From the NCBI GenBank assembly GCA_040143965.1, contig JASJQH010000063.1, positions 1 to 35,538 of the forward strand: a stretch of DNA of 35,538 nt, read 5' to 3'. Every line of letters begins with the position of its first letter. Within the stretch, counting starts at the first letter, position 1. The notes under the pieces are model-generated. The model saw nothing but the letters and a program-made list of their open reading frames with translations. It did no database searches and had not been told where the DNA came from. The stretch comes from Basidiobolus ranarum. Lineage: Eukaryota. Positions 1 to 14,033 of this stretch are shown one piece after another. A program made the translations under genes and the position numbers.

Positions 1-837
1 TGTACCTTGGGGTACTTCCTAATATAAGGAGTAGACGTGAACCCGGATGATAAATACAATTAGAATGGTGCGAAACCACATGGCATATGTTCAACATATG
101 TACTTACCATGGCCTATATGATCCATAGCGTCATAATGGATAAAGAGATAACGAGTGTCAACTCCCTTGGTTTTGATGAAGCTAACTACGCTGTTAGTAA
201 GGTCTTCATCGCCTTGGAATACTTTGGTAACATTTAGAGAGCGCTCTACCATTCCATCGGGGATTGCCTTCCATGCAGAATATACAGCCAACTTGACCGC
301 TGGACGCTCAGCAAGAAGAAGCTTAAAGATGGTGGGGTAAGCAGAGTTCTCAGGATAAACAGAGATAGCGGCGTTGGTATTGGTGAGTTTGTGTTTATCA
401 GGGTTGACACCAGTAATCATTGAGCCCCAATTTTGCGCGCTAATAGTTGGTAACATCGCAGCAGCATTTAGCGTAGAAGCACCTGAGGCCAAAAACTTAT
501 CGAGGACGGGAGTGTTAGCCCACTGAAGGAAATTACCACCACCATCAATTCCAATGAATACAACGCGCTTGAACTCGGACTTGGGGAATTGGCGAATACG
601 ATCGTTGACAAGATCTACATCCGCTTGATTCACTTGACCATCGCCATTGACATCTGCGGATTTCGCATTTTTCCAGTTGGGACTAGTCTCGCTCAAGCCC
701 AAGAAACCTTTGATAAAGGTAACATCATCACCATTCACCAAGCCATCGCTGTTAGCATCCGGATGGACTACGGCTTGGGTTATGGTAACCTGAGCAGCAA
801 GGCATGCCAAAGTAATGAGAAACAATGATTTAGACAT
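1..837 (-). CDS. Secreted bacterial-type dockerin + alkaline phosphatase superfamily (nucleotide pyrophosphatase/phosphodiesterase-like) protein; 3' part runs off the left edge
   Basis: ATG at 837 and a hydrophobic signal peptide (MSKSLFLITLACLAAQVTITQA). Residues 27-81 carry two Ca2+-loop repeats, DANSDGLVNGDD and DVNGDGQVNQAD. AP-superfamily motifs follow: VVFIGIDG, PTISAQNWGSMITG and HYDAMDHIGH. A probable intron at 107..19 (GTAAGT...TATTAG) lets the frame continue as G-S-T-P-R-Y. Confidence 0.8.
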
Positions 838-3487: not shown

Positions 3488-3583
3488 CTAACCCTAACCC
3501 TAAACCTAAACCCAATTCATGATGCGTGGTAATCCTAACAATAACGATCGAGCAGAACCCCCAGAAGAGCACCTAACCCTAAA
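3488..3583. repeat. Short interstitial telomere-like repeats (CCCTAA/CCTAAA units)
   Basis: CTAACCCTAACCCTAAACCTAAACCC at 3488-3513 and CCTAACCCTAAA at 3572-3583, upstream of NUP53. Confidence 0.75.
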
Positions 3584-12809: not shown

Positions 12810-14033
12810 ATGCCGATCGTATATGATGCATCAGATTACCAGGTCGGGATCAAGAGTATTCTTACCTCTATATTTAGTGGATTGTCTCTGCTTGGTGGGC
12901 TTTTCGTAGTCTCTACCATAACATACATAAGAGTGTACCGTCCTCAATTAGCGAATCGACTATCCCTGAAACTCACCTTCTGGATAGCTTTGGCCGATAT
13001 TGTCTATAGCATCTTTGTATTCGTGCTGCAGTGGAAGATCACTTCTAATCAAATATGTGCCTTTCTCTTGTGGGGCTACCTGGAGTTCACTTTATTGCCT
13101 ATCTTTTTGACAGCCACGATTGCCTTTAATTTACACGCCATCTTTGTTAGCGATATATACGACGTTGTTCGATATCAGAAGTATTACTTCCCATTTGCTC
13201 TAACGCTTGCAACCAGTATTAGTTTAATTCCACTGATAGCTGGTCAATTCGAGGCGGATCCTGTGGTTGGAACTTGTTGGTACAGTTCGACTTACACCAG
13301 TAAGACTATGATATGGGAGACCTGCACCCTATTTGGGTGGGTATTCATTGTTGTCCTGTATTGTATCTTCGCGGTATGCTTTATTGGATATAAACTACAT
13401 AAACACGACAAGAATTTAAGGTCGAACATCTCCGTAGACATTCAATTCGTGAGTCGTAAAACGAACAAAGCGATGAGGCGAATTATATTATACCCGATGG
13501 TTCCGATTTTCACTCAAACTTTTAATTGTCTTTGTGAATTTTATACTTTCATTCATAGAGAACTTTATTTTTCATTATATTTACTTTCGGCGGTATTACC
13601 CGCTTGTGTAGGACTTCTAAATGCAGTGGTGTTCATCTTCGATCCTGCGGTGAGGGAATTACTTTACCGAGGTACCCAAAGATCCACCAGTCAGAGTACC
13701 TCGGAAGAGATGTCATTTTATCTATCTAAATCATTGAGTGAATTGGATTCGAAACAATTGAAGCTCCCTTTAGAAGTATCAAGGCCTCCAGAGCGTTCCA
13801 GTGATCCCACCATCCTGGTACGAATAAGTCCGACATCTCAGTCGAATCATAGTCCAATGATCATAAGTAAAATGCCATCTAGCTATCAGGTCCAGGAGGT
13901 TATATCGGAACGGCCTAGTCGTCAAGTAACCTTCAGTGATGAGGAGTCATCAAATCAATCTGTCGCTACATCACCCGAGATGCATCCATCTCATTCTCGA
14001 CCAAGAAAAACCAAATTAATGTCGCTCATATAA
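12810..14033 (+). CDS. Seven-transmembrane GPCR, cAMP-receptor-like/Git3-like; intronless
   Basis: Seven hydrophobic segments. Motifs SLLGGLFVV, RLSLKLTFWIALAD, C in extracellular loop 1, CW in loop 2, RRIILYP and GLLNAVVFIFDP. Ser-rich cytoplasmic tail. ATG at 12810; TATAAAA at 12665-12671. Confidence 0.8.
   Translation: MPIVYDASDYQVGIKSILTSIFSGLSLLGGLFVVSTITYIRVYRPQLANRLSLKLTFWIALADIVYSIFVFVLQWKITSNQICAFLLWGYLEFTLLPIFLTATIAFNLHAIFVSDIYDVVRYQKYYFPFALTLATSISLIPLIAGQFEADPVVGTCWYSSTYTSKTMIWETCTLFGWVFIVVLYCIFAVCFIGYKLHKHDKNLRSNISVDIQFVSRKTNKAMRRIILYPMVPIFTQTFNCLCEFYTFIHRELYFSLYLLSAVLPACVGLLNAVVFIFDPAVRELLYRGTQRSTSQSTSEEMSFYLSKSLSELDSKQLKLPLEVSRPPERSSDPTILVRISPTSQSNHSPMIISKMPSSYQVQEVISERPSRQVTFSDEESSNQSVATSPEMHPSHSRPRKTKLMSLI

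Follow-up and report, generated by a model that had tools for sequence, protein, structure and literature searches.

The gene and its genomic setting

The window (the whole stretch of DNA analysed here, 35,538 nucleotides in length) comprises positions 1 to 35,538 of contig JASJQH010000063.1 in the draft genome of Basidiobolus ranarum (GCA_040143965.1). Basidiobolus is a fungus of reptile and amphibian guts. At its very beginning the window holds, on the minus strand, the 5' part of a gene for a dockerin-bearing enzyme, the predicted phosphoesterase described below. The open reading frame (ORF) of 248 amino acids at positions 837..91 (minus strand) represents exon 1 with a read-through into intron 1, the gene being cut off by the end of the contig; the 248-residue protein catalogued for the window is an artefact of this read-through. 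Intron 1 (50..107, minus strand) has a GT donor and phase 1, and its position matches that of the intron in a paralogue (see below); its acceptor reads AT in the window and AG in the overlapping contig C483. The start of exon 2 (1..49, minus strand) lies at the contig end and overlaps the end of C483, where exons 2 and 3 are found together with the equivalents of Asp286, His287 and His295. The overlap of C483 (13324-13435) with the start of the window (1-114) extends over 112 bp inside the phosphoesterase gene at an identity of 89%, and where the two differ, C483 agrees with the protein of the homologues and the window does not. An assembly error at the contig end appears to be the more likely source of the AT acceptor. 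A truncated copy or pseudogene in the window was considered and is disfavoured by the mismatches along the contig-end overlap and by the fit of C483 to the protein of the homologues. Tail to tail with the phosphoesterase gene, C483 also carries a secreted-looking, low-complexity ORF of about 290 amino acids, rich in Asn, Ser and Glu and with no Pfam match (L123:8362-9237, plus strand).

The neighbouring genes in the window are fungal according to their Pfam matches (Nup53, ELL/occludin, Gtr1, Sla2, MFS, C2, carnitine acyltransferase and an Atf1-like bZIP), and the GC3 of the exon (0.44) lies inside the range of seven neighbouring ORFs (0.31-0.50). Between genes, a short interstitial run of telomere-like CCCTAA repeats was observed at positions 3488-3513. 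An intronless ORF of 407 amino acids at positions 12810-14033 (plus strand) looks like a seven-transmembrane protein with weak matches to Frizzled and GPR_Gpa2_C, and is probably a cAMP-receptor-like GPCR.

A complete paralogue with two GT-AG introns and 80% identity is located on contig C8187; its product (P0002, 352 amino acids) bears the automatic NCBI/UniRef label 'Dockerin domain-containing protein'. The homologue of B. meristosporus (ORY01472) has the same layout as the B. ranarum proteins and has kept the dockerin. Between the paralogues, the dockerin yielded a dN of 0.18 at a dS of 2.2 and the catalytic part a dN of 0.09 at a dS of 1.65, both dS values being near saturation and the dN/dS ratio of the dockerin therefore rough; the low dN of the dockerin relative to its dS argues that the module is maintained under purifying selection. 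Bacterial contamination is ruled out by the introns, the fungal neighbours over 35 kb, the paralogue and the homologue in B. meristosporus. The gene combines the features by which a bacterial xenologue is recognised, i.e., introns, fungal neighbours, host-like composition and bacteria as the nearest non-fungal relatives.

Domains of the predicted protein

A predicted signal peptide (residues 1-22; 772..837, minus strand), suggested by the hydrophobic N-terminus and by the low model confidence of residues 1-22 in the two AF2 models made for the paralogue, is followed by a Dockerin_1 module of the Bacillales Trp-linker kind (residues 27-81; 595..759, minus strand), which was recognised by Pfam, PDB and ESM Atlas searches and by the helices of the AF2 models. 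An earlier note on this DNA had described two Ca2+-loop/helix repeats joined by a linker behind a signal-peptide-like N-terminus, and this arrangement was confirmed in the ORF. Loop 1 (residues 27-38; 724..759, minus strand) carries Leu33 at loop position 7, which is common to the dockerins of Bacillales enzymes, and Asp at recognition position 11; the inter-repeat linker (residues 47-61; 655..699, minus strand) includes the invariant Trp55 (673-675), and loop 2 (residues 62-73; 619..654, minus strand) was identified by the loop pattern. The Ca2+-loop ligands of the window protein are D-N-D-N-D in both loops (positions 1, 3, 5, 9 and 12), and positions 1, 3, 5 and 12 are intact in all three fungal copies. 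The paired loop pattern occurred once in the real window and in none of 200 codon-shuffled windows. In the AF2 model of P0002 the module is predicted to form a three-helix fold (helices 36-43, 55-61 and 71-82, pLDDT >90).

Regarding the identity of the module, residues 27-81 of the ORF matched Pfam Dockerin_1 (PF00404) with 38.1 bits and the module alone with 42 bits (cut-off 22.9), whereas EF-hand_7 scored only 12.2 bits with the ORF and 16 bits with the module alone (cut-off 30). In a PDB sequence search the top 12 matches were entries named as dockerins or cellulosomal-type enzymes aligned via their dockerin part; the best match was 4fl4 (E 5.7e-8), and the first calmodulin ranked below the dockerins (E 0.027). 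The top matches of an ESM Atlas search with the module were Dockerin_1 as well. The sub-threshold EF-hand_7 scores and the rank of the calmodulins rule out a generic EF-hand, so that the comparison of dockerin and EF-hand profiles proposed in the earlier note came out in favour of its bacterial dockerin, whose best PDB sequence matches are cellulosomal dockerins. Its statement that the module is unrelated to the Cys-rich dockerins of the Neocallimastigomycota held as well: the module contains no Cys (those of the ORF are solely at residues 12 and 248) and the window protein has no Pfam match to CBM_10 (PF02013). A CBM_10 search of the Basidiobolus genome, run without a positive control, was likewise empty. 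On this sequence evidence, positions 759-595 (minus strand) are confirmed to encode a true bacterial-type Dockerin_1 module.

The catalytic domain, the exon-1 part of which is encoded at positions 109..576 (minus strand), belongs to the alkaline-phosphatase (AP) superfamily (Pfam Phosphodiest, 35.7 bits). An alignment to Xac NPP placed the catalytic residues at Asp98 (544-546), the nucleophile Ser133 (439-441), Asn153 (379-381), Asp239 (121-123) and His243 (109-111). These exon-1 residues, among them the metal ligands Asp98, Asp239 and His243 and the nucleophile, are invariant in all 26 rows compared; Asp286, His287 and His295 are invariant in all 25 rows that reach them. Fold searches, the match lists of which were filled by the catalytic domain and thus bear on this domain alone, returned SPAP, PafA, ENPP7 and Xac NPP as tied matches (Z 28-29, rmsd 2.1-2.5 Å over 252-265 residues); a whole-protein search of the ESM Atlas yielded solely generic AP-family clusters (0.79-0.80). 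The fold and the bimetallo ligands of Xac NPP, ENPP7, PafA and SPAP/PhoK thus align with those of the fungal enzyme, but the identity to these AP-superfamily enzymes is only about 20%. The hallmark of NPPs sensu stricto, a Thr nucleophile followed by Phe as in Xac NPP, was not found in the fungal enzyme, in which Ser133 is followed by Ala or Gly; the Phe after the nucleophile is the nucleoside-pocket residue of NPP. The PafA/PhoK equivalog of NCBIfam scored 28.6-32.6 bits against a cut-off of 650, and no NCBIfam equivalog fits. The term 'phosphatase' used in the earlier note is correct as far as a secreted enzyme of the AP superfamily is meant and too specific beyond that, monoesterase and diesterase being inseparable by NCBIfam score or structural Z. 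Its predicted ligands suggest that the gene product is an intact extracellular two-metal phosphoesterase of the AP superfamily, the role of which is probably to scavenge phosphate from organic esters outside the hypha.

Bacterial and fungal relatives

A protein library search yielded 1,582 proteins at E <= 0.001; among the best 150 of these, the top was occupied by proteins covering the dockerin and the catalytic domain together. When 28 matches were scanned for domains, six passed the Dockerin_1 cut-off beside a Phosphodiest domain and one more was just below it; the named bearers of both domains are from the B. cereus group, Paenibacillus, Litoribacterium and Brevibacillus. A search of GTDB contigs gave 200 confirmed loci, 80 of which were kept; 23 of the 80, all of them Bacillales, align with query residues 27 to about 347, and in the remaining 57 (Clostridia, Bacteroidota and other MAGs) the alignment does not begin before residue 58. 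The distance from the first loop Asp to the catalytic Asp98 amounts to 72 residues in the three Basidiobolus proteins and nine Bacillales rows, and to 73 in the other 14. A 23-residue inter-loop spacer and the linker Trp are common to the fungal and the Bacillales dockerins; the Trp is present in 23/23 enzyme dockerins of Bacillales and in 21/21 dockerins found next to cohesins (see below).

The typical bacterial architecture is LamG-Big_2-dockerin-catalytic, in some cases with further Big_2 or SLH domains. The Bacillales proteins of this kind (WP_440034155.1 from the B. cereus group, WP_211749231.1 from Paenibacillus and WP_165199356.1 from Litoribacterium) have the same block in the same register as the fungal protein, with identities of 43-51% in the catalytic domain and 26-42% in the dockerin, and share all metal ligands and the Ser nucleophile. 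The fungal protein differs by its lack of LamG, Big_2 and SLH, its fungal signal peptide, its two introns and a more canonical loop 1: position 3 of this loop is Thr or Ser in most Bacillales rows, whereas every one of the three fungal copies has two canonical loops. No relatives of LamG or Big_2 were found in the Basidiobolus genome, and a B. cereus-group query matched the dockerin and catalytic parts alone.

An HMM built from the 23 enzyme-attached Bacillales dockerins gave the Basidiobolus modules 50.8-55.3 bits, and one built from 19 cohesin-adjacent dockerins gave them 36.0-38.1 bits; the plain identity of the fungal modules is equal to both sets (0.31-0.34) and does not discriminate. In a dockerin tree, to be read with a long-branch warning, the fungal modules were placed outside the enzyme-attached clade and outside both sets. 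A fusion after the transfer, with a separately acquired dockerin, was also considered and is disfavoured by the identical register and linker. The homology of the fungal and Bacillales blocks is plain, and we regard it as very probable that dockerin and catalytic domain came from a Bacillales-related bacterium as one block, the transfer having presumably run from bacterium to fungus and being probably old. The earlier note had rightly placed a bacterial dockerin on a fungal enzyme and had overlooked that both would have arrived jointly as a Bacillales-type block. Among bacterial proteins, too, the block moves as a unit, as seen in Paenibacillus sp. MAHUQ-63 (L027), where it lies inside a protein of 2,536 amino acids. 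For Basidiobolus, 2-5% bacterial xenologues have been reported in the available text of a genomic survey, with 35-112 per genome from Firmicutes (PMC7466969).

Fungal homologues lacking the dockerin were found in Calcarisporiella, Conidiobolus, Racocetra and Entrophospora (Glomeromycota among them), and dockerin-less homologues also occur in many bacteria; the catalytic fold therefore does not need the module. Among the fungal homologues found, a dockerin is present only in Basidiobolus. The copies from Glomeromycota have no evident signal peptide. Trees of the catalytic domain were inferred with IQ-TREE, the second leaving out 17 rows of the first and adding 8. Basidiobolus grouped with Calcarisporiella (support 93/98 and 95/94), and nine named fungal rows together with three unnamed rows formed one clade (89/91), which is placed beside and not inside the Bacillales enzymes. 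The clade of fungi and Bacillales is weakly supported (48/85; 86/84 with other rows), and a grouping of Basidiobolus with Bacillales apart from the other fungi was not rejected (p-AU 0.19). A shared origin with P0034 and P0060, two dockerin-bearing homologues placed among clostridial and gut-MAG rows, was rejected (p-AU 0.0016). The placement of the dockerin-less fungal homologues P0004, P0005, P0021, P0220, P0033 and P0088 conflicts with the species tree: Basidiobolus is joined to Calcarisporiella, and Conidiobolus to Racocetra. This pattern suggests old paralogy or transfer from fungus to fungus.

Possible roles of the module and comparison with known systems

Among nine candidates scored in the Basidiobolus genome, two matched Dockerin_1 (41.2 and 39.5 bits), both of them paralogues of the phosphoesterase, a count that is a lower bound for a draft genome; a search with the dockerin region among proteins of 193-616 residues returned only the three known copies. 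Regarding cohesins, no match was found in the draft with Cohesin PF00963 (for which the control matched in 2 of 14 genomes), with a Paenibacillus cohesin or with the cohesin of a Bacillus S8 protease. As the draft consists of 13,754 contigs and was scanned exon by exon, this absence is of moderate weight. The genome-wide hunt for further dockerin fusions and cohesins suggested by the earlier note thus produced nothing beyond the two paralogues and zero cohesins in the draft.

Three sets of dockerins were compared at the recognition positions: the three fungal copies, the 23 enzyme-attached Bacillales modules and 21 cohesin-adjacent rows (from 24 loci, of which three were off-pattern; one row is a duplicate). 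The cohesin-adjacent dockerins have Ile10 (19/21), Gly11 (21/21) and Ala17 (19/21) in repeat 1 and Ile10 (16/21) and Ala17 (21/21) in repeat 2. At positions 10, 11 and 17, the residues of the enzyme-attached and fungal dockerins are mostly polar and variable. In the three fungal copies, positions 10-11 and 17-18 read GD/GD/ND and KG/NG/RS in repeat 1 and QA/ST/SA and ND/NA/TA in repeat 2, so at positions 10, 11, 17 and 18 the copies do not consistently follow the type I pattern of cellulosomes or that of Paenibacillus. Loop position 7 is Leu in 22/23 enzyme-attached Bacillales and 3/3 fungal dockerins, and Lys in 20/21 cohesin-adjacent ones. The earlier note was right about the type of the dockerin and had missed that its recognition positions are polar and variable already in the donor enzymes.

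In several Paenibacillus genomes (G019, G020, G021 and G016; loci L087-L118), between 23 and 30 cohesins were matched per genome, almost always within large secreted proteins that end in a cohesin-dockerin tandem; in the richest of them (G019), 26 of the 27 dockerins among the matches listed follow a same-strand cohesin at a distance of <=330 nt. The face of these tandem dockerins is highly conserved, and no multi-cohesin scaffoldin is evident among the matches listed. In one Bacillus genome, dockerins were matched 61 times, for the most part in proteins about 1,400 amino acids long; the sole scanned protein of this size class (L097), which comes from a different genome, is an S8 protease that carries both a cohesin and a dockerin. 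The Bacillales tandems could represent a scaffoldin-free, self-chaining multi-enzyme system, on which no literature was found by title or abstract.

The two AF2 models of P0002 have pLDDT values of 84.6 and 89.0 and pTM values of 0.86 and 0.88; the 22 residues of the signal are disordered in them, and the dockerin reaches a pLDDT of 90-98. According to our own arithmetic, a freely swinging module of 60 residues would hold the pTM to about 0.75; since the models exceed this ceiling, we infer a fixed packing of the dockerin on its own catalytic domain, a predicted arrangement based on this arithmetic and on one conserved Leu.

The presence of a dockerin on a secreted enzyme was read in the earlier note as a possible sign of docking onto a cohesin, either of the fungus or of neighbouring bacteria. 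For a cellulosome-like nutrient-scavenging complex of the fungus itself, that presence is the one point in favour; the several different dockerin enzymes such a complex would call for were not found, as both matches are the same enzyme (lower bounds), and with no cohesin recovered from the fragmented draft by family or by the two Bacillales queries this reading is extremely improbable. Docking across kingdoms, in which the secreted enzyme would bind cohesins that Bacillales living nearby in gut or soil carry on their enzymes or surfaces, gains something from the fact that the same Trp-linker dockerin family adjoins cohesins in Paenibacillus, that 19/23 donor-lineage genomes have cohesins, and that repeat 2 of one fungal copy (the paralogue P0002) shows the classic Ser-Thr at positions 10-11. 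The life of Basidiobolus among gut bacteria, as given in the available text of PMC7466969, points the same way. It is nevertheless hardly probable: the recognition face is unlike the hydrophobic face of the cohesin-adjacent dockerins and was polar already in the bacterial enzymes, 4/23 donor genomes carry the enzyme without a cohesin match, the bacterial dockerin-phosphoesterase gene has no cohesin among its conserved neighbours, and cohesin-dockerin pairing is said, in work by Pages from 1997, to be usually species-specific. Moreover, Asp11 is found in repeat 1 of all three fungal copies, and an Arg-to-Asp exchange at repeat position 11 shuts a binding site in C. acetobutylicum according to the available text of PMC7608827. 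Even in the broader form of a working dockerin that docks the phosphoesterase on cohesins of gut or soil Bacillales or on an unrecognised cohesin-like surface protein of the fungus, the idea is quite improbable.

An anchor for a target other than cohesin (a wall or surface protein of Basidiobolus, calcium-phosphate mineral, membrane or host mucus), which would retain the enzyme in the vicinity of the cell or of its substrate, is unlikely, yet agrees with several observations: purifying selection keeps the module only in the gut-dwelling lineage and other fungi are without it, in the donors it occurs among the surface modules LamG, Big_2 and SLH, and Phe15 and Phe19 of helix 1 are present in 3/3 fungal copies. 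The presumed outward positions 10, 17 and 18, however, differ among these copies. The dockerin might also be a functionless passenger with its loss still pending, as suggested by the fungal homologues without it and by a survey of 44 early-diverging fungi including B. meristosporus, in the available text of which 102 Dockerin_1 rows from one gene cluster were all classed as 'lost' in fungi (PMC11291939); ORY01472 is absent from the available supplements of this survey (Ciach 2024). The low dN of the dockerin at a dS of about 2.2 and the two canonical loops of all three copies, loop 1 being more canonical than in the Bacillales enzymes, make such a passenger very improbable.

The explanation we prefer, and consider somewhat probable as a whole, combines an old horizontal transfer of the block with a role of the dockerin as a Ca2+-binding structural cap. 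A secreted two-metal phosphoesterase with an NPP/PafA-like fold and a Ser nucleophile would have entered the fungus from a Bacillales-related bacterium in an old transfer, as a dockerin-catalytic block; the fungal form is without LamG, Ig-like and SLH domains, begins with a predicted fungal signal peptide, is interrupted by two introns and has been duplicated. The enzyme most likely acts outside the hypha and releases phosphate from organic phosphate esters. Its dockerin would bind two Ca2+ and pack on the catalytic domain via a short fixed linker, thereby acting as a Ca2+-dependent stabilising cap and not as a cohesin plug; taken by itself, a structural role of the dockerin is reasonably probable.

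A bacterial dockerin retained in a fungus is real and unusual, whereas the cohesin-docking mechanism is poorly supported. Enzymes that pass from bacteria into fungi appear to lose their bacterial dockerin, and the Basidiobolus gene is a clean counter-example. No paper describing a Basidiobolus dockerin was found in the openly accessible literature searched; the word 'dockerin' does not occur in the available text of Tabima 2020 (PMC7466969) and Chang 2022 (PMC9391592). As its donor block can be identified and fungal homologues without a dockerin occur naturally, the gene offers a ready test of the function of orphan noncellulosomal dockerins. If the module merely stabilises the enzyme, it adds modestly to the long list of xenologues already known from Basidiobolus; if it binds bacterial cohesins, it would represent a new kind of contact between fungus and bacterium in the herptile gut and, to our knowledge, the first cross-kingdom use of cohesin-dockerin pairing by a eukaryote.

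The non-catalytic dockerin of the Neocallimastigomycota (CBM_10, PF02013) is also a 'dockerin' on secreted fungal enzymes, but has an unrelated, Cys-rich fold. According to the available text of PMC11291939, gut fungi add CBM_10 to bacterial xenologues after the transfer; in Basidiobolus the bacterial module has been kept instead. With the type I dockerins of cellulosomes (C. thermocellum CelD, 4fl4/1clc; C. acetobutylicum, 6kg9) the fungal module shares the duplicated Ca2+-loop/helix (F-hand) layout, but the pattern of Ser/Thr at positions 10/11 and Lys-Arg at positions 17/18 is mostly absent, the module is N-terminal with a Trp in the linker, and no scaffoldin partner was found in the draft. 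We take positions 17/18 (Lys-Arg) to be recognition positions of type I. Positions 10/11 have been confirmed as such for type I dockerins in the available text of PMC7608827. The C-terminal cohesin-dockerin tandems of Paenibacillus have the 23-residue spacer and the linker Trp of the fungal module, but their hydrophobic face (Ile10-Gly11, Ala14, Ala17) is not kept in the latter, and no cohesin adjoins the module in the fungal protein. These tandem dockerins are presumably type II-like.

A further parallel is provided by noncellulosomal dockerins, which Peer and co-workers reportedly described in 2009, some of them in eukaryotes too. These resemble the fungal case in reportedly being lone dockerins on non-glycosidases in genomes without a detected cohesin; by analogy, the fungal module may work like such an orphan dockerin. 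In contrast to these, the Basidiobolus case comes with an identified donor block and with a xenologue gene that is spliced and duplicated.
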